NCBI GenBank assembly: GCA_963693365.1
Contig: CAVNZM010000010.1
Location: forward strand, 8,948,554-9,012,553
Direction: 5' to 3'
Source: Amoebidium appalachense
Lineage: Eukaryota; Protista; Ichthyosporea
Length of the DNA: 64,000 nucleotides
Positions 1 to 19,930 of the stretch are shown in pieces. The stretch's first letter is position 1, and each line of letters starts with the position of its first letter. The position numbers and the translations under genes are program-made. The notes beneath the pieces were generated by a model. It saw only the letters and a list, made by a program, of their open reading frames with translations, made no database searches and was not told the DNA's origin.

Positions 1-505
1 ATGTGTACACTGGCAGTTGTTTACAGGTGCGCGTTCTTTCGAACAAGCGGTCCAGCGCGTCTTCGATCTTGAACGGCGCGAGGTACTGATGGCTGCAGCC
101 GGCGGGAAGCGCGAAGCGCACCCGGTACTGGCCGGGGTTGTCGAGCAGCCCGTCCATGACCTTGCGATGGACCTCCCTCGCCAGCGCTGCCGTGAACGTG
201 CGCGCATCGACCCCCGTCCAGACCCACGGCGTGGGAAACAGTTCCCGGACTGCGACGACGAGGTTTCCGAGTTTCTTCGAGAACCGTGTGTGTTCGGAAA
301 CTTCACTGGGGCGCGAGAGCATACTCTCGATGTCTTCGGCTGGCACCTTTTCGTTTGTTTCCAGCTCCATAATCTGCTTGACGTACAACACCAGGTGGTG
401 GCCTGTGTACCCGCGCATGAACAACTCGCTGTCCTCGTGGTTGGCCAGAAAGGTGTGCACCAGGTCAAGGCACCGCACAACCACGCCTTCGCCGAGATCA
501 GGCAT
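1..505 (-). CDS. Fic/DOC-domain protein, N-terminal part (runs off the left edge)
   Basis: Manual translation from ATG at 505 is open to position 1: MPDLGEGVVVRCLDLVHTF...FTAALAREVHRKVMDGLLDNPGQYRVRFALPAGCSHQYLAPFKIEDALDRLFERT. This matches the Fic pre-motif pattern (H..lm.gl...pG.yR...y.pp..i...l..lf). The catalytic HPFxxGNGR motif would lie outside the window. Confidence 0.7.
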   Translation of the reverse strand, partial: MPDLGEGVVVRCLDLVHTFLANHEDSELFMRGYTGHHLVLYVKQIMELETNEKVPAEDIESMLSRPSEVSEHTRFSKKLGNLVVAVRELFPTPWVWTGVDARTFTAALAREVHRKVMDGLLDNPGQYRVRFALPAGCSHQYLAPFKIEDALDRLFERTRTCKQLPVYT

Positions 506-899
506 CACTTGTCTCTACACCGAGAGAAAAAACAGACATGTGCAACATGTTTCAATGTTTGAAATCCCCACGACGCGGGCATGCACGGCCGGCCGGGGAG
601 GGGCGGGGCGGGGCGGGGCACACAGGCCCGGCCCGGGAGGCAGGCGTGGCGCGTGCGCTGGGGAGAAACGCGGGCACCCCCAGCCACCCCAGCCCCCCAC
701 CGGGAACCAGCAGTCAACTCGGGGTTGGTTTGGGGTGTGTTGATTGGCCATTGTGAGTGCAGCGCCTGCTTCCTCCACAGCCAATGAGCGTCGAGTGCCA
801 TCGATCAGTTGTGTCCGATTGGAGAACATGTACAGCGGTGTAGGGCCGAATAGGGGATTTTGATTGGCGTCAGGTGAGAGCCCGGGACCGCCGCAGCCA

Positions 900-2118
900 A
901 TGGGAGACGACGGGACCACCCAACGGCTCGGCACAAGGGTACATAAGCAAAGACGGTGTTGTCAAAAGCACACTCTTGCTGCAGCGTGACAGTGGGCTTT
1001 TGGAATTGCCAACATGACGCACATTGAGCGTATTCACATTCTCGGTAAGGACCGCCAACCCCGGTTCGCCTACCAAGAGGACCTGTTCTACACGCTGCAC
1101 CTGCACCCCGAGGCGCCTGGCTCGATCCGCATGGGCACCGCCGCGATCTTCAGCACGAAGACAGGGGAGGAGAGGGTGTGGCCGGTCGACGTCATCCTCT
1201 CCGGGCCGGTACCGCGGCAGTTTGTCGACGAGGAGGGGCGGTGGACCCAGCCGGACAGTTCCACAGCCTGCGACGAAGCGATGGCCTGCGACGAAGCGAT
1301 GACCTGCGACGAAGCGATGGCCTGCGATGAAGCGGGGGCCTGTGACGACCCCCCGCTTCGTCGGGCGTGGCAGCGCGGTGTGGCGTGCACTGTACGACGA
1401 GCTCCAGGCGCCGGCGCTGCGCAGCCTCATCCCCGACGACACGGGCCTCGGGTTTCTCCTCCGCAAGTGCCCCCACCCCGACTTCGACGATGTGGACAAC
1501 GACAACGACGAGGTGATCACCGTCGAGGAGACTGAGCACGTCTGGGGTGTGAGGCTTGGGCAGGCGATGGCGGCTCCGACCGTGGTTCGGCCGCTCCACC
1601 AGGTCGTCGAGAGCGCGACGGTCCGCGCGGCACCGGTGCCGGACGAGCAGTGTTCCGTGTACGCATTGAACACGTTGGACAGCGACGAGGAGGCCAGGAC
1701 GGTAGAAATGTTTGAGGTCTGGCCGGTGCTTCATTGTGGGCAGCCCGCGCTGCGCCTGGGTCTCTACTACCTGCTGGCCGAGGGGGCGCTGGCCGAGCGC
1801 TTTGTGCCCCTGGACGTCATCGTCCAAGGCGACTGGGTCGAGGCCAAGATCGATGAGCACGGGACGTGGAGGGCCGGAGCGGTGGTTGGGCGAAGGGCGG
1901 TGGGCAGCGAGGATGCGTTCCACCTCCAGATTGACATTGCGCTCGACCAGCACATGGAGTTGGGGGTGCTGTCGCGGCAGATGCTGGGAATGGATGCTAC
2001 CAGGGTGGAGGTGCTTGAAGTTGACCCACGCAGAGTGTACGAGCTGGATTGTGACATGGACACCATGGAGTCCAAATTCTCGTTCGAGGGCCACGCGTTT
2101 AAGCATGCATTTTCGTGA
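900..2118 (+). pseudogene. Frameshifted paralog of the unknown gene at 2716-3870
   Basis: Near-identical to 2716-3870 but split into ORFs 1014-1535 and 1327-2118 by indels and an inserted 18-bp repeat block. Confidence 0.75.
1266..1349 (+). repeat. 18-bp tandem repeat GCCTGCGACGAAGCGATG, about 4.5 copies (encodes ACDEAM)
   Basis: Units at 1266, 1284, 1302, 1320 and a partial at 1338; absent from the paralog. Confidence 0.9.
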
Positions 2119-2715
2119 CAGACGGGTGAACCTTGCGAACTTGGTGATTGGTTGCGCATATGTGAGCCTAAACCCTAAGGGTTGTGTGGGGGGTGGGGGT
2201 GGGTGTGTATTTGCGTTGGTCATTTGCCCACAGGATGGGTCAAAACGCGCAGCGCGCAAATAAACCACAAAAACACACGAGCGCGCCCCACCGAGTGGCG
2301 CGCGAGGCGCGCGTGGCGCGCGTGGCCGGTGCCCTGTGTGCCACGCATGCCACGCATGCCCCCATGCCCCGCCCCGGCGCGGGAATTTTCACGCCGGGTT
2401 TTGGGCAGCCATGCACCGTGCAAGGGACCGTGCGGACGCGGTGGGGGCTTCAAGCAAGTTGACACCGGAGCAAAGGGACGCGCTGTACAAGGACTACATG
2501 ACCAACTGCGATATCTGTGCCAGTATCCACAACGACGTAGAAAACCGCGAGATCAGGTGTGTTGATTGGCCATTGTGAGTGCAGCGCCTGCTCCCTCCAC
2601 AGCCAATGAGCGTTGAGTGCCTTAGATCAGTTGTGTCCGATTGGAGAACATGTACAGCGGGCCAAATTGGGGATTTTGATTGGCGTCACGTGAGAGCCCG
2701 GGACCGCCACAGCCA

Positions 2716-3870
2716 ATGGGAGACAGCGGGGCCTCCCAACAGCTCGGCACAAGCGTACATAAGCACAGACGGTCTGTCAAAACCTCACACTTGCTGCAGC
2801 GTGACAAGTGGGCTTTTGGAATTGCCAACAAGACGCACATTGAGCGTATTCACATTCTCGGTGAGGACCGCGAGCCCCGGTTCGCCTACCACCCGGACCT
2901 GTTCTACACGCTGCACCTGCACCCCGAGGCGCCTGGCTCGATCCGCATGGGCACTGCCGCCGTCTACAGCACGAAGACGGGGGAGGAGAGGGTGTGGCCG
3001 GTCGACGTCATCCTCTCCGGGCCGGTACCGCGGCAGTTCGTCGACGAGGAGGGGCGGTGGACCCAGCGGGACACTTACACACCTCCCGACCCCTACTTCG
3101 TCGGGCGTGGCAGCGCGGTGTGGCGTGCACTGTACGACGAGCTCCAGGCGCCGGCGCTGCGCAGCCTCATCCCCGACGACACGGGCCTCGGGTTTCTCCT
3201 CCGCAAGTGCCCCCACCCCGACTTCGACGATGTGGACGACGACAAGGTGATCACCGTCGAGGAGACGGAGCACGTCTGGGGTGTGAGGCTTGGGCAGGCG
3301 ATGGCGGCTCCGACCGTGGTTCGGCCGCTCCACCAGGTCGTCGAGAGCGCGACGGTCCGCGCGGCACCGGTGCCGGACGAGCAGTGTTCCGTGTACGCAT
3401 TGAACACGTTGGCCAGCGTCGAGGAGGCCAGGACGGTAGAAATGTTTGAGGTCTGGCCGGTGCTTCATTGTGGGCAGCCCGCGCTGCGCCTGGGTCTCTA
3501 CTACCTGCTGGCCGAGCGGAAGCTGGCCGAGCGCTTTCTGCCCCTGGACGTCATCGTCCAAGGCGACTGGGTCGAGGCCAAGATCGACGAGCACGGGAAG
3601 TGGAGGGCCGGAGCGGTGGTTGGGCGAAGGGCGGTGGGCAGCGAGGATGCGTTCTACCTCCAGATTTACATTGCGCTCGGCCAGCACTTCGGGTTGGGGG
3701 TGCTGTCGCGGCAGATGCTGCAAATGGATGCTACCAGGAAGGAGGTGCTTTGTATTGCACCATGCAGAGTGTACGAGCTGGATTGTGACGTGGACACCAT
3801 GGAGTCCAAATTCCCGTTCGAGGGCCACACGTTTAAGTATCATTTTCGTGACAGACGGGTGAACCTGTAG
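2716..3870 (+). CDS. Hypothetical protein (~384 aa), intact copy
   Basis: Uninterrupted ORF from ATG 2716 with GC3-rich codons and a paralog at 900-2118. No family recognised. Confidence 0.7.
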   Translation: MGDSGASQQLGTSVHKHRRSVKTSHLLQRDKWAFGIANKTHIERIHILGEDREPRFAYHPDLFYTLHLHPEAPGSIRMGTAAVYSTKTGEERVWPVDVILSGPVPRQFVDEEGRWTQRDTYTPPDPYFVGRGSAVWRALYDELQAPALRSLIPDDTGLGFLLRKCPHPDFDDVDDDKVITVEETEHVWGVRLGQAMAAPTVVRPLHQVVESATVRAAPVPDEQCSVYALNTLASVEEARTVEMFEVWPVLHCGQPALRLGLYYLLAERKLAERFLPLDVIVQGDWVEAKIDEHGKWRAGAVVGRRAVGSEDAFYLQIYIALGQHFGLGVLSRQMLQMDATRKEVLCIAPCRVYELDCDVDTMESKFPFEGHTFKYHFRDRRVNL

Positions 3871-4429
3871 AACTTGGTGATTGCGCATATGTGAGCCTAA
3901 ACCCTAAGGGGTGTGTGGGGGTGGGGCTGGGTGTGTATTTGTGTTGGTTGCGCATATGTGAGCCTAACCCCTAAGGGTTGTGTGGGGGGTGGGGGTGTAT
4001 TTGTGTTGGTCATTTGCCCCAGGATGGGTCAAAACGCGCAGCGCGCAAATAAACCACAAAAACACACGAGCGCGCCCCACCGAGACTCGGGGGTGTAGGG
4101 GGCGGCGAGGCCCAGGAGGCCAAAAGGCCGCGTGATAAAACATTTTCCACTGTGTCAAAGTCGTGAGTGCAGTAGTATGCCAGGCCGCAGGCCACATGCA
4201 TACAACATTGTGTATCGGATTATCCGGGAGTACAAATGGCCCAGGGGGCAGCGAGAGGCCCGCCCGGCCCGCCCGCCCGGCGAGACGCGTGTGCCACGCA
4301 TGCCCCCATGCCCCGCCCCGGCGCGGGAATTTTCACGCCGGGTTTTGGGCAGCCACCCACCAATATGACCGATGGCCATTTTGGTTGTGTGTGCGCCTCC
4401 GCCGCTTCCGATTTTGTAGTCGAGGAGCA

Positions 4430-5904
4430 ATGAGTTCACGCCCGCGCGGCAGACCCCCGAAACGCGCCAGAACCGAGGAACCGGAGGACGATGACCCGCT
4501 CACCTCATGGTTCTCTGGGATTTGGCAGCTGACCGCCGACCGTGCAAGGGACCGTGCGGACGCGGTGGGGGCTTCAAGCAAGTTGACACCGGAGCAAAGG
4601 GACGCGCTGTACAAGGACTACATGACCAACTGCGATATCTTTGCCAGTATCCACAACGACGTAGAAAACCGCGAGATCACGACCCCAATCAGACAGATCG
4701 TCTTCCCGCCCGACGGTGACGGCCTCGAGCCACGCGACGAGGACCTGGCAGAGTTTATGAACATTAATGGGCTGAAGGAGGCGAAGCAGAAGCTTTTTGA
4801 AACCGTTATTGTTCCACGATTTGTGCCCGAACTGTTCCGCAGCCTGCGAACGCCTGGGCGGGGAATTCTGATGTTTGGTCCACCCGGGACCGGCAAGACG
4901 TTTATTGCGAGCAAGTTGGCGCAGGTGGGCAGGTCGACGTTTATGAACGTGTCGTCGGCTGTGCTCAACTCAAAGTGGGAGGGCAACTCGGAGAAGGCGG
5001 TGCAGGCAGTGTTTTCGCTCGCAAGGTGCCTGCGTCCCACTGTCATGTTTCTGGACGAGGCCGAGTCGATACTGGGCTCCCGAAACCGCAACAGTGCGAG
5101 CGGGTCGGGCAACTCGTACAAGATCACAAACCAGTTTCTTTCGGAGTACGACGGGCTGCGCAAGAACAATGACCATATGCTGTATGTGGCCGCGACAAAC
5201 CTGCCGTTCGACCTTGACCGGGCGATTCTGAGGCGATTCCCATTCGCGTGTTTGTTGACCTGCCGCTACCGATCGACATCCTCGAACTGATATTGGAGAA
5301 ATTGGACGAGTTCCAAGCGGAGTATCCCCTGAGCGTCGACCCAACGCTGCTAGTAGTTAATGACGGGGTTCACACCCCGCGAGAGGCCCTGCAGAAGTTG
5401 GCGTACTGGATGTTTCTCAAGTCGTATTCCACATCGGACATCCTCAATCTAATCAAGCAGGCTGCGACGGCGCCAATGTCTCGGCGCATTCGGGAGATTT
5501 TTCAGTCACCCTCGGGCACAGGCAGCTTTGCCGGAGAGCTCAAAGGGCTGATCGAAAGACAGCCCAAGCCACTGGCAGTGCGGGATTTCCTGTCGGCGGC
5601 AAATACTGTTCTCCCCGCGTTTACAAAGTTTGACGATGACATGGAATACACCGCGGACTACATCGAGCTATTTGCATTCAAGATCAATATTGAATGGCGG
5701 CGCGGCGAAACGATGCCCCCCGGGTTTGCACACGCACTCCAACAGCACAGGGATGCGGAGCTGAACCCAACCAGCTTGTGGGGACCCGAGGTTCCGACAT
5801 GGTACGTCCACGACGTCCGCGAGGGCAAGGATTACGCCCTTGGTCGTTACTACCAGGAGCAGGTGCTGCCGGAATTGGATATTGTGCTCATCGACGGCGA
5901 TTGA
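4430..5904 (+). CDS. AAA+ ATPase of the Vps4/katanin/spastin type with N-terminal AT-hook; 1-bp frameshift near 5245
   Basis: Walker A GPPGTGKT, pore loop SKWEGNSEK, Walker B VMFLDEAES, SRH AATNLPFDLDRAILRRF. The protein continues in another frame as VFVDLPLP to stop at 5904; restoring one C gives RRFPFRVFVDLP. N-terminus contains RPRGRPPK. Confidence 0.88.
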
Positions 5905-6175
5905 ACCCGGGTGTGTATTTTGGTAAGCAATTGGCAATCGATCAATGTGATCGATCGATAGCCATTCTGGTTGTGTGTGTGTGCCGTAACCCGCAGCCTG
6001 CAATCGGTCAATGTGACCGGTTGTCATTTTGCTAGGCACTGGGGTACTTGGCAGCCAAATGCCTCAAATTGAGGCCTTTGAAATGGTTAACCAGTGAAGT
6101 GGATGTGTTGCACCCTCCCGCTGGCCGGGTACAAAAGGCGCCGCGCGCAAAATAAAATCGCAGTCTTACTCTGAA

Positions 6176-7555
6176 ATGACTTCAAACACGTCTCCCCCAC
6201 CCTCTTACTCTCCCACCCCTCTTGGCCCCGACTGGCGCCCGCCCGCGGGCCACGAGTCGCGCGTGGACACGTCGTCGGTGCCCGCGTGGCCCGGCGTGCG
6301 CCCGTTCTTCGCGCCGGACGGGGAGAAGGTGCTGACGTACCTGACGAAGTTCGACGGGCACGTGTTCTTCAACGCGGGGTACTCGGCGATGATGGGGAGC
6401 AAGGAGACGGGTGTGAGAAAGAACCCGGTTGACTGGAAAAAGGACAATGCAAATACGATTTCGAAGGTTGTTTCGGTGGTGCAGGCGTCCCAGACGACAT
6501 TAGGGGATGCCCTAACGTCCTCTGTTGTGTCTTCCGATTGGTTGGTTAGACCGGCTTATGCAAACATCAAGAAACTACCCGCCGTGGGCAACCCGGACGG
6601 TTCTGTTGCCTACGCCTTCGCAACGCACGGTCTGATACCCGCCATCGAGATGTACCGCGGGACCTGGTTCGCGTTCGAGCTGACCGCGCCGTTTCTGCGC
6701 TACTGCTTTCCCGCGCTGCGGGACTTCTGGGACAACGTGATGGTCAAGTCGCACCTGGGCCAGATGGACTACTTCGCGGACCTGGTGCGCATCGCCGACC
6801 AAGGACGCGGCGACGGGGCCAAGACCAAGTCCGTGCACATCGACATGGAGGCCGCGGACGCGGAGGGCCCGCGCGCGGGCAAGCGTGAGCGCGAAGACGA
6901 CGGGGAGCAGCAGGTGGCCAAGCGCAACCCGCTGGACGCGATGCTGGAACCGGGCAACTGGTTCAAGCCGGGAGTGGATTTCGACACCGCGCTCGAGCAA
7001 CTCAACAAGTTCATCACCACCGCGCACCGCGACATCTGCACCAACTACTGCCCCGAGGCACTCGCGGCGGTCAAGCGCGCGGAGGAGGTAGAGCGACAGG
7101 AGCGGGCCAAGCAGGACACGATCCAGCGGGGCATCGACTCGACGCTTGCCATGGTGAAGGCAGTGCGCGAGATGAAGGCCGAGCTCAAGGGTCTGGACGT
7201 GCACTTTGTGGCCTGGCGGCAGCTGAACTTCGACTGGTCGCTCAAGGCGGCCGGTGGGGCGTGTGTGTATGCGCTGCACATCGACGGCTACATTAAGATC
7301 GGGCACACGGGCAACTCGCTTTTCCAGCGCTACAAGTATGACCTGTGGTCCCACGACATGAAGGAGCTCATCATCATATGTATGCCCCATCGCAACAAGA
7401 ACGAGGCGGACCAGTTCGAAAAGCTGGTGCAGAACCAGCTCAAGCAGGTGCGCGTGATGGTGGGCAACAAGCGCGAGATGTTCGCGGCGGACTACGTGCG
7501 CGTGTCAAACGCGTTCAAGGAGGTGTACGGGGACGACGACATCCGCTTTGTCTGA
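6176..7555 (+). CDS. KilA-N domain + C-terminal T5orf172 (GIY-YIG-like) domain protein
   Basis: KilA-N-like segments FFNAG...KNPVDWKK...YRGTWFAFELTAPFLRYCFP; central coiled coil; C-terminal VYALHIDGYIKIGHT...FEKLVQ...KREMF. Confidence 0.75.
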   Translation: MTSNTSPPPSYSPTPLGPDWRPPAGHESRVDTSSVPAWPGVRPFFAPDGEKVLTYLTKFDGHVFFNAGYSAMMGSKETGVRKNPVDWKKDNANTISKVVSVVQASQTTLGDALTSSVVSSDWLVRPAYANIKKLPAVGNPDGSVAYAFATHGLIPAIEMYRGTWFAFELTAPFLRYCFPALRDFWDNVMVKSHLGQMDYFADLVRIADQGRGDGAKTKSVHIDMEAADAEGPRAGKREREDDGEQQVAKRNPLDAMLEPGNWFKPGVDFDTALEQLNKFITTAHRDICTNYCPEALAAVKRAEEVERQERAKQDTIQRGIDSTLAMVKAVREMKAELKGLDVHFVAWRQLNFDWSLKAAGGACVYALHIDGYIKIGHTGNSLFQRYKYDLWSHDMKELIIICMPHRNKNEADQFEKLVQNQLKQVRVMVGNKREMFAADYVRVSNAFKEVYGDDDIRFV

Positions 7556-7752
7556 TTCTGGATGTATCTGGATGTCCGTGAACCAGTCACGGACTTCTGT
7601 GTTCACGAACCGCACCTATAAAACCGTCTACTTCGCATCATCTTTGAAGATCACGAATCACTCAAGCAATCACTCAAGATGAGTGATTGCCAGTTGGTTT
7701 GCATCCAAGTTGCGCATATAAAACGCCGACTCGCACGAGAGATGTGTGCAGA

Positions 7753-8411
7753 ATGGACTTCATCGAGCGTCTGAAACAAAACGAGATTCCCTACCCACAG
7801 GGAAGTACACAGTGGCTGCGCGCGCGCGCATCCATGCTCACGGCCTCGGACGTGGGCGCAGCGCTGGGGGTGAACCCGTACGAGACGCGGAAGGACCTGA
7901 TCGAGCACAAGTCCGGGCTGAAGCGGCGGGTCGTGGACCCCGTGTTCGTGGCATTCGGACACAAGCACGAGGCCAACGCGGCGGACGCGTACATGCGCGC
8001 GACGGGGCGCTCGTGCATCGAGCTTGGGCTGATCCGGCACGCGGAGCACCGGTGGCTGGGGGCGAGCCCGGACCGGGTGACGCTGTGCGGGCGCGCGGTG
8101 GAGATCAAGGTGCCGTACAAGCGCAAGTTCATGGACGGACAGCCGATCCCCGAGCACTATGTGGCGCAGGTGGTCGGACACAGCTGTTTGTGCTGGGGCT
8201 GGAGGTCGCGGACTTTGTGCAGTTCGACCCGCGCGACGGGTCGCTGCGCATCGACGAGATCCCGCGGGACAAGGAGTGGTGGGCCAAGCACGGCAAGACA
8301 TTAATGAGTTTTCAGGCCAAAGTGTTAGACATACGTGCAGATCACGAGCTGCAGGGATGGGAGACAGAGGACCAAGACACAGCGATTTGTCACATTCCCG
8401 ATTTTATATAA
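7753..8411 (+). CDS. YqaJ-like viral recombinase / lambda-type exonuclease; frameshift near 8178
   Basis: Motifs QGSTQWLRAR, LTASDVGAALG.NPY, FGHKHE, WLGASPDR, VEIKVPY, IPEHYVAQV. An extra CA (GGA CA CAG CTG) shifts the frame to QLFVLGLEVADFVQFDP...IPRDKEWW. Confidence 0.9.
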
Positions 8412-8902: not shown

Positions 8903-8904
8903 GT

Positions 8905-11190
8905 CTACAAGGCCGCGGCCGCGTTGGAGGGGGGCTCGTCGTTGCCGGGGCCGTCGGCGCGATGGCGTCTGCGAGGTGTTTCTTCGTCCCGCCCGTCGCC
9001 ATCATCCGCCTCCGACCTCCGCCTTTTCTGGGCGGATTGCGACTCGAACACTTCCATTAAACCCTTCAACCGGGCGCCGACCCCGGCCTCGATGCGAGAT
9101 TCTATGTCTTTTTCCAGGTCTTCTTTTTCCTTGACCAGTGCGGCAATCTTAGAATATTGGGATTCCAATTTCGATTCCAATTTCTGGTTCCTGTTATGTT
9201 CAGTCTCATAGGACTGTTTGAGCTTTGACACCTCCCGTTTGAGGTTGGCCGCCTTCCCTATCTCGCCAGCGAGTTCCGTCCTGAGTTCTTTAAGTTCCTG
9301 CTCGAGGCGTTTTCGCTCCGTTTCCTTGGTCTCCTTCCATTTCGTATTTTCGGCTTTGAGTTTGCGAACTTTCTCTTCGAGGCCGTTGATCTTTGTCGAG
9401 TCCGCGTTGTTGCGACGTGTGAGCTCCTCGATCTTCGCTTCCTTCTCCGTGCTAAGCTTCTCTAAGGTTTCCCTCGTCTCTTTTCCTCCCACGACTGCGA
9501 TCTTCAAATTTTGCTTCAGCGTCGCGCTTTCCTGCTCGAGCTTAACGATCTGCGCGCGGTACCGCCCCGAAACCATGCCGACGAGGCGCGTGATGGTGGA
9601 AACCACCTCCATAGTGGCCACGGAGTCGCCGCCGAGTAGACCGGATAGGTCGCTCAAGGGGTCGGCTGAGGGTGGGAGTGCGAGGCGCGCGGGCCGTCTA
9701 ACGTCTTGCTCCTGCTCCTCCGCTCGCTCCTTCTCAGTCTCTCGTTCTCGTTCGAACTCTCGCTCCGCTCCCTTGTTCTCTTCACGCTCATCTCGCTCCG
9801 TTCCCTCGTTCTGTGGATCTTGTTCCAAATCTCGCTCCTCTCGCACTTGCTCCTCTCTCTCCTTCTCTTGCTCCTTCTCTCGCTCCATCTCTCGTTCCTT
9901 CTCTCGCACTCGCTCCTCCGCTTGCTCCTTCTCTCGGTCCTTCTCTCGCTCCTTCTCTCGCACTCGCTCCTCCGCTTGCTCCTTCTCTCGCTCCATCTCT
10001 CGCTCCTTCTTCTCTCGCTCCTTCTTCTCTCGTTCAATCTCTCGCTCCTTCTCTCGCTCCTTCTTCTCTCGCTCCTTCTCTCGCTCCATCTCTCGCTCCT
10101 TCTTCTCTCGCTCCATCTCTCGCTCCTTCTCTCGTTCCATCTCTCGCTCCTTCTCTCTCTTGTTGTCCTCTCGATCCTTTCGCTTCTTTCGCTCCATTTC
10201 TCGATCTTTCTCTCGACCTTGCTCTCTCTCTCGGTTAATTCGCGCCTCCCCTCGCCGCTGACTCTGCAGCTGTTTCTGTTGCTGGGCCCCAGCAGGCGAA
10301 TGGAACAGTCCGGTCGTGGAAAATGGTTGGTGTTGCCCCGTGTGTGCCCCAGGAGAGAAGAGTCGTGGCTGTGCAAATGGTATAGGCTGTGGAGAGGCCT
10401 GCAGAGGCCGTGTCATTGGTTGTGGCTGAAACCCGAATTGCCGAGGGTCGAGAGTGTTGGGTAGAATTGGTCTGTTTTTGGTGCCGCCGGTCGTGGTTTG
10501 GGGTCCCGTGGTGGGAGCTGCCGGGGATGCAGAGGACGGTGCTGTCAGGGGTGGAAGATCGAACGGGGATGCAGAGGACGGTGCTGTCGCGGGTGGAAGA
10601 TTGATATCGGGAAACCAATCTACAGGAAAATCAATCACTTCCTCTTGTGGGAGCAACCACTCGAAACTTTCAATCGCCAACCAATCTATGTCCTGGGGCG
10701 GAATTGTCATCGAAGGGCGGAAAGTCTTTCCGGGTGTAAAACGTTGCAAAAATGTTGCCAATGAACACGGATAAACCCACGTGTTCACACCGGTCAAACG
10801 TGTAGCCGTTAAAGGTTCAACATAGAGGACTTTCAACTCATCGGCTACATGCCTTAGTATCCCGGCTGCTTTTCTCAGGCGGAGGAAATCAGAAAGCGAA
10901 GGTGTCGTGATGTGTTCATCTGGCTGTGTGCGCGATGAAGAATGTGAAGCAACGTGAATGAAATGGTGGAACGGCGTATTTGGTCCTGTTTTTGTAGAAG
11001 GTACACAAACGTGGTTGTGGTCTTCTGTGCACTCGCCCAACGCGCACGATTTATCTATAGTCACATCCAAAAACACATCATCTCCCCTCGTCACTAACGC
11101 TGCCTCAAAATATCGATCTTCACCAACTCTGACTCCAATAGTGCCTGGGGCGTACAGGCGCAATAAGCATGCAAACTGTGCTCGGTCCAT
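8905..11190 (-). CDS. 761-aa protein with E/R/K-rich low-complexity repeats and C-terminal coiled coil
   Basis: Long ORF with EREKEREME repeats (~9840-10230), heptad-rich C-terminus and an NLS-like QKRRRS. Confidence 0.75.
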   Translation of the reverse strand: MDRAQFACLLRLYAPGTIGVRVGEDRYFEAALVTRGDDVFLDVTIDKSCALGECTEDHNHVCVPSTKTGPNTPFHHFIHVASHSSSRTQPDEHITTPSLSDFLRLRKAAGILRHVADELKVLYVEPLTATRLTGVNTWVYPCSLATFLQRFTPGKTFRPSMTIPPQDIDWLAIESFEWLLPQEEVIDFPVDWFPDINLPPATAPSSASPFDLPPLTAPSSASPAAPTTGPQTTTGGTKNRPILPNTLDPRQFGFQPQPMTRPLQASPQPIPFAQPRLFSPGAHTGQHQPFSTTGLFHSPAGAQQQKQLQSQRRGEARINREREQGREKDREMERKKRKDREDNKREKEREMEREKEREMEREKKEREMEREKEREKKEREKEREIEREKKEREKKEREMEREKEQAEERVREKEREKDREKEQAEERVREKEREMEREKEQEKEREEQVREERDLEQDPQNEGTERDEREENKGAEREFERERETEKERAEEQEQDVRRPARLALPPSADPLSDLSGLLGGDSVATMEVVSTITRLVGMVSGRYRAQIVKLEQESATLKQNLKIAVVGGKETRETLEKLSTEKEAKIEELTRRNNADSTKINGLEEKVRKLKAENTKWKETKETERKRLEQELKELRTELAGEIGKAANLKREVSKLKQSYETEHNRNQKLESKLESQYSKIAALVKEKEDLEKDIESRIEAGVGARLKGLMEVFESQSAQKRRRSEADDGDGRDEETPRRRHRADGPGNDEPPSNAAAAL

Positions 11191-11641
11191 ATCTCGCGGA
11201 GTCTACGAATTCTTACGCATTTTCGGCCTAGCGATTTAGTACATTGTGGCAGCTTATTTGGCCAGGGCTGGGTTTTGTACGTTTTTTTTTATCAAAGAGC
11301 CGCGCAGCCAATCGTTCACTTCCGATGAACCAACAACCAATCGTTATTTCGATTGGAAATCGGTGATTGGATGATATTCAGCCAACAAATGGGCTGTTGC
11401 CATGTGTCATTAATGATTGGTTTGTCGAAATGTCTCGCATTTTTCTTGACTTGTTGGATCGCTGATCTTCAACCAGTCATATATCTACAAATTGCTTTTC
11501 TGTTATTTTAATTGGCTAGACGTCATGCAAGTGTTTTGGGCTAAAAGATTCCCGTGCTGTGATTGGTTGCTCAATCGTATCACGTTGGAAGATGCATCGG
11601 TATGTTGTTTTTGCTTTATTGAGTCTCTCGGGTCGGACGTT

Positions 11642-12067: not shown

Positions 12068-12118
12068 TTGCTATTACACACACATAATATTTTGTGGTGT
12101 TTTCGGCGATGTCGTGGT

Positions 12119-12181
12119 GCTTACGTCATCGAGTCTTGGTTCTGCTTGCGTCATCGAGTCTTGTTCTGCTTGCGTCATCGA
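12119..12181. promoter_or_regulatory. Three ~24-bp tandem units with bZIP-type sites (TTACGTCAT/TTGCGTCAT) between divergent genes
   Basis: GCTT(A/G)CGTCATCGA occurs three times in the short gap between starts at 12067 (-) and 12191 (+), followed by TATAAA. Confidence 0.45.
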
Positions 12182-12190
12182 CGATTATAA

Positions 12191-13501
12191 ATGACGATGT
12201 CATCGACCGCGAGCCCGACGTTTCGATCATTGGTTGGATTTGTCCGTGTGAACCCCATGATGCGTTTTGCGACGACCGGGGCGAGTTGTGTGCCGCTGTG
12301 CTTTTTCAACCATCCTGTCGAAGGAGCCTCCGTGTTCCTAGCCCGACCCCGTGCCTACAATCCATTTGGGGGTGTCGAGAGGTGGAGCCTTGAGACGGGC
12401 CCCGTTGGCTTCGCGAGCGCTGGTCTGGCGCGGTTTTGCGAGTTGACCACAGCGTACGTCGTGCTGGTGGTCGATTATCCGACGTTTGTTGTGTGGGGCA
12501 AATGTACAATCTCGTTGGTTAATCGCCATCGCGCGGAACCTGGCGTTGGCCAATCAGCGGTGCTGCGCGCGTCACCGGGCAGTGCAAACGCGGATAGGCG
12601 GGTTGGGGCCGCGTCGGGTGACATACTCGCGCTGGACGTCTTGCTGCCGTTCGATGTAACCGGTGCGCGTCTCGTTGGATACAGCGGTCGCCACGGGGTC
12701 GTGGTATTTTTGATCCACAGCAGCCCAGATCTGGGTGACTGGGCCTGTCCGCAGCTCCGGGGATATGGGACCGGTACTGCCGGGGCTGGGAAAGGACCCG
12801 GGTTGCCGCTTTGGTCGATGGACCGACATGTGGTCTCCGAGCATCCGTGTTCTGTGGGCGACTCACTTGTTGTGTTGTGTCGGGGAGAGCGAGGATCGAC
12901 GTTTGTTGTGTCGGTTGATTGGGTCACGGGTGCGCGGAACTGGAGTGTCTGTCTGGGTGGGTGGATGGGCGCGATGGGGGTGTTGTCGGTGTCGAGTGTC
13001 GATATCCGTGTTCTGTACCACAATCATGCGCCAGGTGAGGACGGGACGCTCGCGGTGGTGGACGCGATCGGTCTGCGGGACGGCCGACTTCTTGGGGAAT
13101 GCAGAGTGGATATGCTGACGACTGGTAGACCTCATTGGTGGGGTGATGAAGTCGGGTGTGCATTCTGTTCAAAGGCACCCCTCGAGCCCACACATCGATA
13201 CTTTGCCAAGCGTGCGTTATGTACTTGTTGGGTGGATATGTACGAGAGGACGGTGTTGTGCCGCGGGGGCGACCGATTGTATGTTGGTCGCCTGGGTTTC
13301 AGTAGAGGGGATAGCGATGTGCTGATATACGAAGTCGGCGCTGACGATGTGGTGCGTCTTGTCAGCCAGCATCGCGTGTTTCTGGATGGTGTCGTGCACG
13401 CGCTGACCATGAGTGTCGCCAGTCGATTCGTTGTTTTGGGGGCACACGTGACCGCCGATGGAGGGAGTATCTTTCAGGTTTTTCGGTGGAAGATCGAGTG
13501 A
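12191..13501 (+). CDS. Hypothetical beta-rich protein (436 aa), possibly a beta-propeller
   Basis: Long ORF with Val-rich strands and a PQQ-repeat-like segment VVSVDWVTGARNWSV. Confidence 0.6.
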   Translation: MTMSSTASPTFRSLVGFVRVNPMMRFATTGASCVPLCFFNHPVEGASVFLARPRAYNPFGGVERWSLETGPVGFASAGLARFCELTTAYVVLVVDYPTFVVWGKCTISLVNRHRAEPGVGQSAVLRASPGSANADRRVGAASGDILALDVLLPFDVTGARLVGYSGRHGVVVFLIHSSPDLGDWACPQLRGYGTGTAGAGKGPGLPLWSMDRHVVSEHPCSVGDSLVVLCRGERGSTFVVSVDWVTGARNWSVCLGGWMGAMGVLSVSSVDIRVLYHNHAPGEDGTLAVVDAIGLRDGRLLGECRVDMLTTGRPHWWGDEVGCAFCSKAPLEPTHRYFAKRALCTCWVDMYERTVLCRGGDRLYVGRLGFSRGDSDVLIYEVGADDVVRLVSQHRVFLDGVVHALTMSVASRFVVLGAHVTADGGSIFQVFRWKIE

Positions 13502-13805
13502 TGTGTGGGCTACTATTGCCCGGTGTACTAACGATTTGAAGCTACACAGCTGGCTATTTTTGCTTTCGTGCTCGCTTATTAGTATTCAATTTACACACCA
13601 TGTTCTGTCATTTGGTTTCGGTGTTGGCACTAAGATATGTAATTGCACACCGACATGTGTCGACGGTTCATAGTCTTTGCTTCTGTTTGCCAGCACTGCC
13701 AAAGTTTGTATCCATCAAACATTATATATAAACTGTATCTGTATCTGTGTGTTGTTCCCCGTTCCGTGCATGCTCGATAATAGCAAGTAAAATAATGGGT
13801 TAGTC

Positions 13806-14787
13806 TCATATGACCACTGATTCGATGTATCCTCGGGTGGGTGCGGCGTCCCTTGCAGGGCAGCCATGTGTGTGTTGCGTTTGTGTTGTGGATTGTGCGT
13901 ACAGGTCGAGCTTGCGTTCGTGGCCGACAAAGAAATTTGTCGTGAGGGTCGCGATTGTTCGGCTTGACGCGAGTGTCACTTGGTATGCCTTGAGGGATGC
14001 ACATGCAAATGCTTTGTCGTCGAAGAAAGACTCGCATCTCGCCAGTGTTTTTGAGATTGTTGTCGAGCCGGATTTGACGGCCGTGACCGTTCCACAGTCG
14101 TGCAGTGGAAACGCAACATATGTGCCTTCAAAAGCACCCTTGACGGTCCAACAAGGGCTCTGTTTGTCTCCAGAGAAGTGGATCAGTCCTGAAGATATTG
14201 CCCCGTGAACTGTCCCGTCGTATGTCATCCACGGAGACGATCCGTGTGTGAATACGCGGCCGCCGTGTACATCCAGAAATGCAATTCTATGGATGTTTGG
14301 GTCCCTCGATGTGGCCGTTTTCTGTTGGGGTTCGTTATTTTCCTGGTAGAGTCTTTTGTAATTGGCGAGTTCGTGGTGAAGCCTAATGTTATCCTTTTCC
14401 GTCTCTTGTAATGAATTTATAAGCCTGTTCTGATTATTTAAGAGCTTGATCGCATTGCTTATTTGCGATATGATATTTTCCAATTCCTTCTCGAGTGGAT
14501 CGTCTTTGGGTTTTTTCTGTTGTGCCTGGTTGCAAATGAGCAGCCATCGTCGTGAAATGGTTCAAAATTTTGAGTGTCTGTGTGGAGGTTCTGTTAAACA
14601 TGTTTATTATATTTTTAATGTCGTCTATTTTGTTTGGGTCGTCGACATCAGTGCCACCCCCAACTGTTCCCGATCCAGCGGTGTCGCTTTCTTTTGGCAT
14701 TTTCGATAACAATCTGACGATGTCATCGTGTGTGGCGCTCAGTGAATTCCGAATTCCGCTTAGAATTTCTTCGTTGTCGGTTGACAT
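13806..14787 (-). CDS. Hypothetical protein(s): overlapping ORFs 14434-14787 and 13806-14483, possibly one frameshifted gene
   Basis: Same strand with a 50-bp overlap; the downstream ORF starts at a non-ATG codon; both have coiled-coil-like segments. Confidence 0.5.
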
Positions 14788-14872
14788 TTCTGCTTATCAT
14801 TGCTGTGAAAATATCGGCACCGCCCGAGCGACAAATTATTGGTCTCGTAACAGACACGCCAATCGGCTAGTC

Positions 14873-16190
14873 TGGTGGGACGGAAACACGGGTTCTGTGT
14901 GGCGACCAATCGGAACGCGCGGTTGGGGCGTGGTCGTGGTGACGGGACTGCGGTCAAGAGTAGGAGCATCATCGAAGACCCTGTCGTGTCGGACGCGCAA
15001 TCTGATTGGTGGGACGGAAACACGGGTTCTGTGTGGCGACCAATCGGAACGCGCGGTTGGGGCGTGGTCGTGGTGACGGGACTGCGGTCAAGAGTAGGAG
15101 CATCATCGAAGACCCTGTCGTGTCGGACGCGCAATCTGATTGGTGGGACGGAAACACGGGTTCTGTGTGGCGACCAATCGGAACGCGCGGTTGGGGCGTG
15201 GTCGTGGTAACGGGACTGCGGTCAAGAGTAGGAGCATCATCGAAGACCCTGTCGTGTCGGACGCGCAATCTGATTGGTGGGACGGAAACACGGGTTCTGT
15301 GTGGCGACAAATCGGAACGCGCGGTTGGGGCGTGGTCGTGGTGACGGGACTGCGGTCAAGAGTAGGAGCATCATCGAAGACCCTGTCGTGTCGGACGCGC
15401 AATCTGATTGGTGGGACGGAAACACGGGTTCTGTGTGGCGACCAATCGGAACGCGCGGTTGGGGCGTGGTCGTGGTGACGGGACTGCGGTCAAGAGTAGG
15501 AGCATCATCGAAGACCCTGTCGTGTCGGACGCGCAATCTGATTGGTGGGACGGAAACACGGGTTCTGTGTGGCGACCAATCGGAACGCGCGGTTGGGGCG
15601 TGGTCGTGGTGACGGGACAGCGGTCAAGAGTAGGAGCATCATCGAAGACCCTGTCGTGTCGGACGCGCAATCTGATTGGTGGGACGGAAACACGGGTTCT
15701 GTGTGGCGACAAATCGGAACGCGCGGTTGGGGCGTGGTCGTGGTGACGGGACTGCGGTCAAGAGTAGGAGCATCATCGAAGACCCTGTCGTGTCGGACGC
15801 GCAATCTGATTGGTGGGACGGAAACACGGGTTCTGTGTGGCGACAAATCGGAACGCGCGGTTGGGGCGTGGTCGTGGTGACCGGACTGCGGTCAAGAGTA
15901 GGAGCATCATCGAAGACCCTGTCGTGTCGGACGCGCAATCTGATTGGTGGGACGGAAACACGGGTTCTGTGTGGCGACCAATCGGAACGCGCGGTTGGGG
16001 CGTGGTCGTGGTGACGGGACTGCGGTCAAGAGTAGGAGCATCATCGAAGACCCTGTCGTGTCGGACGCGCAATCTGATTGGTGGGACGGAAACACGGGTT
16101 CTGTGTGGCGACCAATCGGAACGCGCGGTTGGGGCGTGGTCGTGTGGTCAAGAGTTCGAAGACCCTATCGTGTCGAACGCGCAATCTGAT
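14873..16190. repeat. 134-bp tandem array, 9 near-identical units plus 1 degenerate unit
   Basis: Unit start TGGTGGGACGGAAACACGGG at 14873, 15007, 15141 ... 16079. Few substitutions (e.g. GACCAATC versus GACAAATC); the last unit has internal deletions. Confidence 0.97.
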
Positions 16191-16425
16191 GTGTGATATT
16201 TCTGTTGTTGTTTTTTTTTGTTATTCTATCCTCCTTCTGTGATTGGTGTACAACAATCTTAAACCGGGCGGTCCAATTAATGGATGTCTCTTGATACTTT
16301 GTTTTTGTCGCTACGTTGTGTGTCTCCTGGCTATAAGAAGTGTTGCGTGTGTGTCAGTATGCTCATCCTACAGTCGCAGCTTTCTCTTCACATCTACTCT
16401 AGCTCTCAACGAGGCTGTTTTCAAC

Positions 16426-17623
16426 ATGTCTAACCTTAGCTCTCGAGACTACGACTTGGGGGTTGATGGTGCTGCAATCGAGGCGGCCCTTGCCATTCCT
16501 AGGAATGTCAAAAACCTTGTGCGCGTTGCTGGGTTCGGATGTGTTGTCCGTGATCTGATGGCTACTTTTGCCGACTATACCCACGACGAGGGGCTCAAGG
16601 AAATCCTTTCTGCTATCAAGTGTATGTTACCTGAAGGGATACCGCAATACCCGAGGGGTTTCACTTCAGAAGACGAAGAGAGTCTGAGGACCGCCATCGT
16701 TTCTTACTGCAAGAGTAGCAACCGCAACGCCAAGATTGCTCGGAATGTCGAATCACGTGCCGGTGATCTCGCCCAGTCTATGGGTGCCGCCCCCATGGCC
16801 CCGCCTCAAGATGTCGCCCCCATCGCCCCGCCTCAAGATGTCGCCCCCATGGTTCCGCCTCAAGATGTCGACACCGAGATGGCCGAGCAAGACCCAGATG
16901 ATACTAAGGCGGGTGATCACAATTCGGCAAGGAGCTCCAGTAGTAGGTCTGATACCGAATCGTCTTCGTCTTCATCTGATGACGATGACAACGATGACAA
17001 CGATGACAACGATGACAACAAGGGGGCTATCTGTCTCAAAGAGTTCTACAGTCTTATGCAGAAGAATCGTGAGAGCCAGGACAACGTGGTTATCGATGTG
17101 CCAGCCTCGCGGTTTGCTATGTTCGATGAACTGGGCAATCCGATCTTTGTCGAGTCACGCCATCCAATCGCCGACCCCCAAACCGCTCCGATCGATGTTT
17201 CCTCTGACGATGACACCACTCAAGATCGTCCGCCTGTCGCTCAGCCCGTCGTCTCTAATGGGATCAGTAAGACCACTGGCCGCAAGTTGGCGATTCCATC
17301 GGTGGGCAAGACCCCCCCCGGGACTGCCGAGGCACTTCGGAAGATCGCGAATGCCGGTGTTCAAAAGCACTCCAAGCCCAAGAAGTCTAAGCCCAAGAAG
17401 TCTAAGAAGTCTAAGTCGGCTCCCTCGCCCGCCCGCACCCAACAACATTGCCGACTGTAATAACCCAGAGAGTAGAAAACGTGCATTTTCTGAATATATG
17501 GATACTTGCAAGAATATTTGTAAACTGGTAAAGAAGAATATATTGACAGAGGAGCAGGCTAAACAGTTTAAAATTGCGGCCTGGCAGAAGAGAATCGAAG
17601 ACGAGTCAAAGCCTGATGAATAG
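16426..17623 (+). CDS. Hypothetical protein with PPQDV repeats, acidic tract and Lys-rich tract; probable frameshift near 17430
   Basis: ATG 16426 is open to 17460. A helical-looking C-terminus (RKRAFSEYMDTCKNICKLVKKNILTEEQAKQFKIAAW) continues in another frame to 17623. Confidence 0.6.
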
Positions 17624-17852
17624 GTTTTGTGTTGCTTTACGATGTGTTACACGGATGTAAATCATGTCATTAGTGTCGATGTATGCGTGTTCTTAGTCTT
17701 AACAGTAGATTCGGCTTCTATTAGTATGCATATGTGTTTCTGTGCTTGTTTCTTATATCGACTTGGCTTGTCAATATATATATATATATATATATATGTA
17801 AAAAGTTTCATTGTGTTGTTACTCGATATGTTTGGTGAATATTATTAAATAA

Positions 17853-18110
17853 ACCCCCCCCCCCCCCCCCCCCCGGCCCCCGGCCCCCCTGCCTCGCGTG
17901 CCTCGCGTGCCTCACGTGCCTCACCTGCCTCACGTGCCCCCCCCTGCCTCACGTGCCCCCCCTGCCTCACGTGCCCCCCCCCTGCCTCACCTGCCTCACG
18001 TGCCCCCCCTGCCCCCCCCCCCCCCTGCCTCATCTGCCCCCCCCCCTGCCTCACGTCCCCCCCCCCCTGCCTCACCTGCCCCCCCCTGCCTCACCTGCCC
18101 CCCCCCTGCC
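17853..18110. repeat. Low-complexity block of (C/G)TGCCTCAC and poly-C units
   Basis: Repeated TGCCTCACG/TGCCTCACC interspersed with C runs. Confidence 0.85.
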
Positions 18111-18126
18111 CGGGTCAAGACTTAGC

Positions 18127-18399
18127 TCGTGTAGACTTAGCTTTTTTCTCTCTCTCTCTCTTTTCTCTCTCTCTCTCTCTCTCTCGTGTAGACTTAGCTT
18201 TTTTCTCTCTCTCTCTCTTTCCTCTCTCTCTCTCTCTCTCTCGTGTAGACTTAGCTTTTTTCTCTCTCTCTCTCTTTTCTCTCTCTCTCTCTCTCTCTCG
18301 TGTAGACTTAGCTTTTTTCTCTCTCTCTCTCTCGTGTAGACTTAGCTTTTTTCTCTCTCTCTCTCTCGTGTAGACTTAGCTTTTTTCTCTCTCTCTCTC
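18127..18399. repeat. Minisatellite: TCGTGTAGACTTAGCTTTTTT followed by (CT)n, 6 copies
   Basis: Copies at 18127, 18184, 18241, 18298, 18332 and 18366. Confidence 0.92.
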
Positions 18400-18525
18400 A
18401 CCCCACCCCGCGTGCCTCCCGTGCCTCCTGTGCCTCCTGTGCCTCCTGTGCCTCCTGTGCCTCCTGTGCATTCCCCGTTCCCCGTTCCCCGGCCTGTTTC
18501 TGATTGGTTTCTTGTCTTTACTTTA

Positions 18526-19368
18526 TTAGGCAAACAGGCGCGTGATGCTGTTGGTCGGGACACACAGCTTGCCGGTGGGTCGGGCAGTGACGTCAGCCAC
18601 GAATCCGGGCGCGATGATTGGCTTCACTTCCGGCTCTGGAATGTGTGGCTCCATCAACACCTCGAAGTCTTGCACCATGCTTGGGTCGGTCCAGCCACGT
18701 GCCTGTGTGCAGTAAACACGCCAATGGGCTCTCGCCACGTGCACGGCCTCCGTGTAGTCGGTGTATGTGCCGATCTTGTGGTATTGCCCTTTCTTGTGCA
18801 CCATTGGAAACCGCACCTCGAAGAAACCTTCGCGGGTGTTCACAAACCGGCATGGCTGCCCTGTGATTCGTCTCTTGAACTTGTTATAGGCCTTTGGTCG
18901 CGGGCAGAGATTGGTCCGTCGGTTGTCCTTTACTGATTGGTTTCGGTGATCGATCTCGAAGTCCGTACTCGCGGTGATAATGCCCTGGAAATAGCACACC
19001 AACTGGTGTGCAGCCGGTGACTCAGCCACGTGTTGATTCCAGCCCGGTAGGTAGAGTCGTAGGTAGCCTTTGGTATCGCGTACCCAGCCCACACGTGTTG
19101 CCCAGGTCATGTCCTCCTCGGAAAAACACCAATCGATTCCGCCCATTCTTATCGTATCCGTACCCACCGCGTGCATCTCATTGGCTTCACTCCACGTGTT
19201 CATCACCGGCTCATCGTTTGCGTCATACCAGAACAGGCTGAACCCACTGCCCTTCTGAATGTTGCTGTTGTACCATGTTATTAGTTGTAAAGGCTTGTAT
19301 ATGCCCAGAGCAACCAGAAATTTGCACCATTGTGGCGCGTTGTGTATTTCATCATCCATGATCGCCAT
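18526..19368 (-). CDS. HNH endonuclease with C-terminal AP2-like DNA-binding domain
   Basis: KGYLRL...AHQLV...EIDHRNQSVKDNRRTNL...YN (HNH), then RFVNTREGFFEVRF...GQYHKIGTYTDYTEAVHVA (AP2-like: three strands plus G.y.t..eA helix). Confidence 0.8.
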   Translation of the reverse strand: MAIMDDEIHNAPQWCKFLVALGIYKPLQLITWYNSNIQKGSGFSLFWYDANDEPVMNTWSEANEMHAVGTDTIRMGGIDWCFSEEDMTWATRVGWVRDTKGYLRLYLPGWNQHVAESPAAHQLVCYFQGIITASTDFEIDHRNQSVKDNRRTNLCPRPKAYNKFKRRITGQPCRFVNTREGFFEVRFPMVHKKGQYHKIGTYTDYTEAVHVARAHWRVYCTQARGWTDPSMVQDFEVLMEPHIPEPEVKPIIAPGFVADVTARPTGKLCVPTNSITRLFA

Positions 19369-19923
19369 TCATGTCTATGCACACATAATATTTTTCACAT
19401 CACCGGCGGGGCTGGGCGTGGCTGGGCGGGGCGGGGAGGCCCCTGGCAGGCACGCGCGCCTCGCATGCCGCGTGTGCCTCCTGTGCCTCGTGTGCCGCGT
19501 GTGCCTGGCATGTCCCCGTTCCCCGTTCCCTAGTACTATATGGTTGTGTTTTAGGTTTAAATCGATAAGTGTTTGTTGTCATTGGCCACTTACCCACTTA
19601 AAAGTGGGTAATGCTGTATCGTTTGTTTTGTCTCCTTTTTTTTTCTCTTTTTCGATTTTAAGTGGAAAAAGTGGGAAGTGGGAAATAGATTGATCGCGAT
19701 CGGATCGGAGGTGGTTGGTGTGGTGTGATCTCAAAGTTACCAGGCCACGTGACTAGTCCAATACCCTGAATCAATACATGTTTTAATTGGCTTATATGAC
19801 TTTGTCATTCCAAGAGCTTTTTTTATTGGTTTATACAGGGATGACAGATGCCTTCGTAGATCCACTGATCTGGTCGAGGGCGAGGACCATCTTCCATCTG
19901 CAGAGCACGCAGCGGCCAAGGGG

Positions 19924-19930
19924 TATAAAA
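19924..19930 (+). promoter_or_regulatory. Candidate TATA box of secreted-protein gene copy 1 (conserved at ~24311 in copy 2)
   Basis: GGGTATAAAAG lies ~180 bp upstream of the ATG in both copies. Confidence 0.5.

Follow-up and report, generated by a model that had tools for sequence, protein, structure and literature searches.

The first 19,760 positions of the 64,000-nucleotide stretch of DNA analysed here (the window) are a virus-like block set against host DNA. On balance, we consider that an endogenous giant virus (Nucleocytoviricota) in the host's nuclear genome probably has its right-hand end here, and that this block is an eroded copy from a family of about ten, recent, near-identical and chromosomal. 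Its viral origin is very probable, we are equally confident that it is truly joined to host DNA at this locus, and the excess of read depth described below is likely to come mainly from chromosomal copies. The original prediction for this DNA had taken the block for the end of an endogenized large DNA virus. Viral origin was borne out by a tree of the YqaJ gene and by the gene set, and an end of the repeated family does lie near 19.76 kb; the join to the host is seen in the assembly, with no bridging contig among those listed. The roughly tenfold over-representation of the block in near-identical form had no part in that prediction.

Copy structure was assessed by comparing five public runs with the window, leaving out X1, which matches best and may be the source; some part of 16,300-21,000 is present in 20 of the 24 listed runs, none of the 20 being recorded as RNA, a point with no bearing on expression. 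Run kinds (DNA or RNA) were guessed, X2 being guessed to be DNA, and the tool itself warns that contig depth does not equal copy number. Sixteen X2 contigs are listed: 10 from the body of the block, two from a cassette with an HNH endonuclease-like gene, one from a secreted-protein gene just past the edge and three from the host flank. All 10 body contigs (on 175-17,444) have depths of 348-622, with a median of 538, compared with 29, 57 and 73 for the flank contigs (on 21,082-22,247; GC 44-47%), so that the body median is 7-18 times the flank values; GC content gives no advantage. 'About ten' copies is a rough figure, because contig depth is no copy number. The two cassette contigs have depths of 167 and 262, and at 167-262 against approximately 540 for the body, the HNH gene is likely to be present in part of the copies only. 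Long X2 contigs are 99-100% identical to the window, with 17 substitutions and 3 gaps over 1,706 bases in one instance, and 4 and 1 over 1,077 in another. Among 596 records on 1-14,800, however, 331 are less than 99% alike (204 at 95-99% and 127 at 90-95%), with variant forms at several joints, and depth is uneven along the block (about 350, 600 and 170-260). Uneven depth and the many variants speak for a family of copies more than for a single clonal genome. Four further observations were not used as evidence: X9 has no cover on 19,908-22,350; X18 contributes diverged pieces only; X20 (guessed to be RNA) covers only the secreted-protein gene and low-complexity sequence; and X10, with 'DNA?' as its label, is patchy, being high on 8.6-10.9 kb and absent from 2-5.9 kb, a pattern that looks like RNA.

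By the read data, the repeated family stops at 19,760/19,761. Immediately inside it, 214 bp (19,548-19,761) contain six AAGTGG motifs, where 0.064 are expected per 214 bp elsewhere; the motif was chosen post hoc, and six of any hexamer occurred in 1 of 5,000 simulations and in 5 of 137 element windows, all of these in tandem repeats. At 19,548 and 19,570, contigs of X2, X9 and X10 run into this terminal segment out of different inner flanks; at 19,761 an X9 contig passes from it into unrelated sequence of at least 255 letters. Summed depth is higher within the segment (871 at 19,567 and 1,255 at 19,714). The window thus departs from the repeated family where the X9 contig also runs into unrelated sequence, although the X9 continuation may be more element and not host flank, since X9 has no host cover. 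This pattern is what a terminal repeat would look like. Only one end of the element is visible in the window, within which the segment has no partner; its motif has no match in JGI metagenomes. A Helitron end was considered and rejected, as the shared sequence continues past CTAG. The satellite array lies 3.6 kb inside the end, with 12.6 CCAAT boxes per kb versus 1.7 per kb in host DNA; its 134-bp units may resemble promoters or mark a replication origin close to the element end, and the satellite motif has no match in IMG/VR.

The window copy is damaged. At each of four frame breaks (near 5,236, 8,173, 14,508 and 17,429), X2 and X9 share a short indel relative to the window, and hence the lesions of the window copy are missing from the high-depth form. 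The first unit of a tandem duplication comprises ORFs (open reading frames) at 1014-1535 and 1327-2118 and an AAA-locus fragment at 2348-2555; it is 92-94% identical to 2556-4084, and the AAA fragment is 97-99% identical to 4292-4679. An X9 contig joins 2308 to 4266, skipping the second unit.

The case for a large DNA virus is carried by YqaJ and the gene set. The closest relatives of YqaJ are eight Logan proteins (53-61% identity, among 23 candidates), and the homologue clusters consist wholly of such proteins; other matches are lower, at up to 44% in IMG/VR and JGI and up to 36% in phages (12 phage records), the latter value leading us to reject phage or bacterial contamination. In a tree of 39 rows (the window, 8 homologues and 30 representatives of 107 loci), the window and the homologues form a clade (100/99), to which L016 and L046, metagenome contigs of 67-70% GC, are sister (96/90). 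L016 also encodes DUF5767 (E 1e-27). The YqaJ phylogeny, to which the original prediction had looked, therefore places the gene on the giant-virus side, and the habit of giant-virus insertions of branching with giant-virus homologues is seen here in one gene tree. We take DUF5760 and DUF5767 to be giant-virus families. Both are named in one giant-virus genome paper, available in part (PMC12085832), and YqaJ is given as one of five genes common to skiaviruses, mamonoviruses and manesviruses in the accessible text of bioRxiv 10.64898/2026.07.28.741200. Because of the YqaJ tree and the gene set, the block very probably descends from a large DNA virus, its class membership being indicated by one gene tree and composition and not by hallmarks. 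No other element gene was found in the 112 loci retrieved. L016 (1706-3160, minus strand), L035 and L046 are short contigs of 67-70% GC with YqaJ and DUF5767, and may represent a high-GC giant-virus group, the nearest free relative found. Separately, P0123-P0130, P0001 and P0002 make up a diverse YqaJ and KilA-N/T5orf172 protein family known from raw-read assemblies only, and are likely to be sister insertions or viruses.

In composition, the block and the DNA beyond it differ as originally described, that is, as some 20 kb of intronless, CpG-rich ORFs beside microsatellite-rich spliced genes. The CpG observed/expected ratio is 1.06 in 1-19,768 and 0.54 in 19,769-64,000, or, with repeats masked, 1.09 (1-14,800) versus 0.65 on the host side. 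Some 13 intronless gene-like units occupy 75% of 1-14,800 and 66% of 1-19,760, giving the block the intronless, gene-dense character and unlike-host composition of giant-virus insertions, and within it composition is a mosaic (GC 60% in 1-8,600, 52% in 8,600-14,800). The contrast is real but the switch is not fully abrupt: the best CpG change-point is 19,170, with 17,346-19,274 within 3 log-likelihood units, low-complexity arrays (17,858-18,469) still lie within the block, and the first gene past the edge (20,102-20,860) is itself intronless. Nor does the predicted edge coordinate, 19,768, hold; it lies 8 bases past the edge given by the reads and is the last base ahead of a host duplication (19,769-20,864 against 24,157-25,255, 96.6% identity), 8 bases separating the element end from that duplication.

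The downstream DNA is microsatellite-rich and includes a mitochondrial phenylalanine-tRNA ligase (PheRS) gene split into eight collinear pieces across 7.6 kb, with AG/GT at the edges of several; with the context-specific CpG loss described next, it supports a eukaryotic, methylated host, intron-rich as had been predicted. CpG loss in host DNA is stronger in GCG/CGC contexts (odds ratio 0.56, p 8e-22; repeats masked, both host halves), also in 4.4 kb of hand-picked coding-like host DNA (odds ratio 0.50, p 5e-6), and the element lacks it (odds ratio 1.03 overall, 1.02 in element genes). Methylation in Amoebidium is reported at approximately 70% in GCG/CGC contexts versus 20% in others, in the available part of PMC11244446, and the same bias, read indirectly from CpG depletion, is present in the host DNA. 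A PheRS tree was built from 26 rows out of 57, themselves from 120 listed hits. In it the host falls outside the 11 bilaterian animals (100/99), and its neighbour, with weak support (75/62), is CFRG8252, the tag being presumably that of Creolimax; a clade of host plus animals was not rejected (p-AU 0.34). From the CpG-context loss and the PheRS placement, an Amoebidium-like ichthyosporean is therefore a likely host.

Several points weigh against the endogenous giant-virus reading. Viral class and mobility are not directly demonstrated, because no hallmark gene, integrase or transposase occurs in the window: capsid (MCP), PolB, A32, VLTF3, integrase, transposase, tyrosine recombinase and Plavaka domain were absent from all 124 six-frame ORFs with a length of 75 amino acids (aa) or more in 1-19,900, a scan that excluded ORFs inside the satellite array of an element extending left beyond the window. 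The hallmark search suggested at the outset (MCP, PolB, A32, VLTF3) was thus carried out on the window ORFs, with no match in 124. The DUF5760 and HNH matches lie under the Pfam cut-off. The single-copy baseline of X2 comprises three short contigs, in runs of guessed kind. Among the contigs listed none bridges 19,761-19,769, the join being seen in the assembly only, and 19,761 may be a break point in a longer element and not its true terminus. The indels near 5,236 and 14,508 sit within or next to short homopolymers and could be errors of assembly, and substitutions relative to X2 lack a clear C-to-T bias (51 versus 42 in reverse). On the host side, a Penelope-like remnant lacks the GCG/CGC bias (odds ratio 0.90, not significant, small counts), and host placement is by one gene with weak support, in a tree with no sponge, cnidarian, choanoflagellate or fungal label.

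Four other explanations were weighed. In the first, a giant virus replicates persistently in the culture, with some ten genomes to each host genome, and the window holds one integrated, decayed relic of it, a situation like that of the Allomyces mycodnaviruses or the Chlamydomonas virus. This would account for a high-depth form that is homogeneous over contigs of 0.6-1.7 kb and separated from the window by a short indel at every one of the four frame breaks checked, and for its presence in runs of at least three sample codes from 2011, 2020 and 2024; excess coverage marked replication in one Allomyces strain (PMC13533422, available in part). Yet depth varies about 3.7-fold along the block and more than half of the X2 records are less than 99% alike, unlike a clonal genome, and the accessible part of PMC11244446 reports neither particles nor a complete core gene set in Amoebidium, so that we find this explanation improbable. 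We give as little credence to a giant transposon or mid-sized integrating virus (Polinton-like, adintovirus or Plavaka) that captured giant-virus genes and whose transposase sites are the AAGTGG motifs. The element is multi-copy and near-identical with a short motif-rich end, as in DNA transposons, and Amoebidium carries 44 adintoviruses (about 30 kb) and Plavaka repeats of up to 50 kb (PMC11244446, in part). Against this, the 19.8 kb adjoining the end, two thirds of an adintovirus, encode no capsid, protein-primed PolB, Dam, VLTF3, tyrosine recombinase or Plavaka domain; the combination that defines Polinton-like viruses and adintoviruses (capsid, packaging ATPase, PolB or helicase, integrase) is lacking there, as are, by Pfam, the flanking transposase and tyrosine recombinases of Plavaka at the visible end. 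YqaJ is, moreover, core to mamonoviruses and their kin, in sources available in part, and the contig of its sister bears DUF5767.

That the junction is an assembly chimera of repeated or free viral sequence with a host contig is very unlikely. No bridging contig is among those listed, and both sides are repeated, the left one being the element and the right one carrying the secreted-protein gene (depth 242-343), but the two sides share no sequence that could mislead an assembler, the join coincides with the place where a contig of another run leaves the family, and substitutions and a duplication of its own mark the window copy, as expected of a distinct locus. An origin as host genes, or as one old gene transfer since domesticated, is hardly tenable and was already disfavoured: this class of AAA ATPases arose in eukaryotes, but the block has no introns, no CpG loss, a viral-type YqaJ, frame breaks and a tenfold depth excess.

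Features of the window are collected in Table 1. Family calls followed Pfam cut-offs, and PHROGs and NCBIfam were also scanned. Only AAA, T5orf172 and YqaJ passed the Pfam cut-offs; DUF5760 (22.2 bits, cut-off 27) and HNH_3 (14.8 bits, cut-off 24.8) fell below, and 8 of 13 gene units had no Pfam family. The predicted gene complement therefore survives in part: T5orf172 and YqaJ are secure, DUF5760 and HNH are weak, and KilA-N and AP2 were not detected by Pfam in the window's own proteins, being found only in the relatives P0002 and P0134. The AAA protein has as its best NCBIfam model CdvC, a Vps4 relative (7e-37, below cut-off), and matches spastin at 3.9e-38; in IMG/VR its domain is 27-36% identical to that of 5 loci, and a further match, at 50%, spans 35 residues. 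Two homologues of the T5orf172 protein were found, both Logan proteins, of which P0002 adds KilA-N. Downstream of the YqaJ break, the frame resembles the C-terminus of YqaJ homologues. The atlas match of the 436-aa protein is a viral cluster of 53 members, most commonly Nucleocytoviricota, and serves as a lead only; single-sequence AlphaFold models gave a pLDDT of 32 and all atlas matches were at or below 0.84. Of four matches of the HNH protein, two (P0131 and P0132) were discarded as repeat-derived junk. Since the window lacks the other inner flank with which the terminal segment occurs, it could not be confirmed that the HNH cassette had simply been inserted between two positions of the window. 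None of 10 window proteins was found by exact look-up, Rfam and tRNA scans returned nothing, and the DUF5760-like protein, the T5orf172 alignment and the 13.8-14.6 kb ORF had no confirmed match in IMG/VR. Run X10 has a depth of 240-570 over much of the 761-aa gene (8425-11215), ending about 25 bases upstream of its start, with little or no cover of other element genes; this would be strong expression if X10 were RNA, which its label does not state.

Table 1. Features of the window, with their coordinates and the evidence for each.
Feature	Coordinates	Strand	Evidence
Right-hand part of virus-like element	1..19760		CpG observed/expected 1.06; X2 depth 167-622 vs host flank 29-73; continues leftwards beyond window
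ORF, function unassigned, 168 aa, open 3' end	2..505	-	No Pfam, PHROGs or NCBIfam match
First unit of tandem duplication: frame-broken copy of 384-aa gene and 5' AAA-locus fragment	734..2555	+	Self-comparison
384-aa gene, no family; second unit of tandem duplication	2716..3870	+	GC at third codon positions 0.82; atlas matches <0.8; model pLDDT 32
Single-domain classic AAA ATPase (Vps4/spastin-like), frame break near 5,236	4430..5904	+	PF00004 E 1.7e-27
T5orf172-domain protein, 459 aa	6176..7555	+	PF10544 22.6 bits, cut-off 20
YqaJ (lambda-exonuclease-like) gene, frame break near 8,173	7753..8410	+	PF09588 E 1.3e-20; tree
761-aa protein, R/E-rich repeat and coiled coil	8905..11190	-	Weak coiled-coil family matches only
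DUF5760-like protein, 141 aa	11642..12067	-	PF19064 E 1.6e-4, below cut-off
436-aa beta-rich protein, possibly a propeller	12191..13501	+	Atlas top match 0.84
Two ORFs (14434-14787, 13806-14228), likely halves of one gene, break near 14,508	13806..14787	-	Open frame 13809-14561
Satellite array, 134 bp x 9.5, CCAAT-rich	14873..16144		Repeat scan; 99% identical
Acidic/basic low-complexity protein, frame break near 17,429	16426..17623	+	ORF; short indel vs X2, X9, X10
Low-complexity tandem arrays, periods 9, 18, 34, 57 bp	17858..18469		Repeat scan
HNH endonuclease-like gene, 280 aa	18526..19368	-	PHROG HNH 1.8e-5; 28% identity to an HNH_3 protein over 171 columns
AT-rich terminal segment, six AAGTGG motifs (2 reverse, 4 forward)	19548..19760		41% GC; motif count
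Host flank: intronless secreted-protein gene copy (ORF 20102-20860)	19769..20864	+	96.6% to 24,157-25,255; low CpG
Mitochondrial PheRS, 8 exons	29764..37343	+	Pfam; tblastn pieces; trees

The host side contains further features. The secreted-protein gene is present in two copies (20102-20860 and 24490-25251, plus strand; 96.6% identity), is predicted to be secreted, has no Pfam family and is covered in X20 (guessed to be RNA); its X2 depth of 242-343 (242 in the listed contig) suggests several more copies. A PheRS intron (31610-32560) holds a reverse-transcriptase-like remnant with a YIDD motif, without a Pfam match and with an E value of 0.72 to a PDB reverse transcriptase, which we take to be Penelope-like; a second Penelope remnant, upstream of the second secreted-gene copy, was dropped because the match was too weak (E 0.005). 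A multi-exon host gene lies on the minus strand at 38514-43209, with a Pro/Thr-rich terminal frame of 687 codons, a predicted membrane span and no Pfam match, and an exon of a PGAP1-like glycosylphosphatidylinositol inositol-deacylase gene (E 1e-10) lies at 55836-56159 and onward (plus strand). Host stretches 46001-47000 and 62001-63000 have CpG observed/expected ratios near 1.0, and may be unmethylated promoters, repeats or small foreign inserts.

The endogenous giant-virus family that we favour would have arisen from a nucleus-using virus that inserted repeatedly, or that was copied after insertion. The element would retain its CpGs because of its recent arrival, and, by analogy with the part of PMC11244446 available, would be silenced by host 5-methylcytosine; copies would decay by small indels, tandem duplication and internal deletion, with the ends persisting. 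The AAGTGG-rich 214 bp is a predicted binding site for a protein that integrates or processes genome ends, which the window does not encode. YqaJ is predicted to resect DNA ends for recombination-linked replication, the Vps4/spastin-like ATPase to remodel host membranes or microtubules, and the T5orf172 protein to bind and cut DNA; the HNH gene is a putative mobile passenger in some copies. A bolder version, in which the element is a purposely integrating, latent giant virus, with about ten near-identical copies, intact genes and a short motif-rich terminal repeat, multiplying as proviruses or free DNA, we consider rather unlikely.

A giant-virus insertion in an Amoebidium-type protist is expected and of an already known kind. 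What is new here is the copy structure, that is, the depth excess, near-identity, private lesions and repeated terminal segment. If about ten copies share one end and have fixed-length target duplications, the choice between accidental and programmed chromosomal entry becomes testable, in a culturable relative of animals and from existing long reads. A latent integrating virus, if true, would be the first of a holozoan, one that laboratory cultures already contain, and such insertions could no longer be read as chance debris. For the genes of the element, IMG/VR and JGI metagenomes offer no close relative; proteins from raw-read assemblies come nearest. That the lineage is undescribed, as had been suggested, is doubtful given the Amoebidium-type methylation footprint and the at least six giant-virus clades already known there (PMC11244446, in part). 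Our literature search, to which most subscription journals were closed, found no paper on a near-identical multi-copy or terminally repeated family of ichthyosporean giant viruses.

Among known systems, of which the sources were available in part, the Mycodnaviridae of zoosporic fungi (PMC13533422) resemble the block in being integrated in an opisthokont microbe, in having YqaJ and in exceeding host coverage in one strain; they differ in their near-complete genomes, hallmarks, integrase, mostly host-level coverage and fungal host. Polinton-like viruses and adintoviruses (PMC10120064, PMC12220804, PMC11244446) also form many near-identical insertions with defined ends in protist genomes, but these are 14-40 kb long with capsid, packaging ATPase, polymerase and integrase, none of which is in the 19.8 kb here. 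Viral insertions in Acanthamoeba (PMC12210455) likewise occur as several partial copies per genome, chimeric and with sudden GC shifts; those are Medusavirus-related, and their copies are 85-95% alike without terminal repeats, whereas here identity is 99-100% over kilobases and the end is repeated. With the latent virus of Chlamydomonas reinhardtii (bioRxiv 10.1101/2024.09.03.611062) the element shares a satellite near the end, several relics that keep their termini and no evident integrase. That virus has satellite-bearing inverted repeats of 10.8-14.8 kb, ACC-GGT ends, 6-bp target duplications and particles; here one end is visible, the end motif is different and the element is known from sequence alone.

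The closest comparison is with Amoebidium itself, for which the accessible text of PMC11244446 describes giant-virus insertions from at least six clades, 90 of them chromosomal and 42 unplaced, which reach 200 kb and of which none is complete, as well as 44 adintoviruses and Plavaka repeats. The giant-virus insertions are intron-poor and enriched in recombinases and in genes for membrane fission and tubulin depolymerisation; integration is called stochastic, and 'terminal' appears once in the main text, about adintoviruses. The block may be one of the insertions already catalogued there, and so may its sister copies. The traits of those insertions that are missing in the window are hallmark genes and JmjC. 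As in Amoebidium appalachense (PMC11244446), an intron-poor, gene-dense block lies in an intron-rich, CpG-methylated host with GCG/CGC bias, and the block has recombinase and Vps4/spastin-type genes, a partial gene set and decay. Unlike those insertions, described in the same source as highly divergent, the block is about tenfold over-represented at 99-100% identity and has a repeated, motif-rich end.

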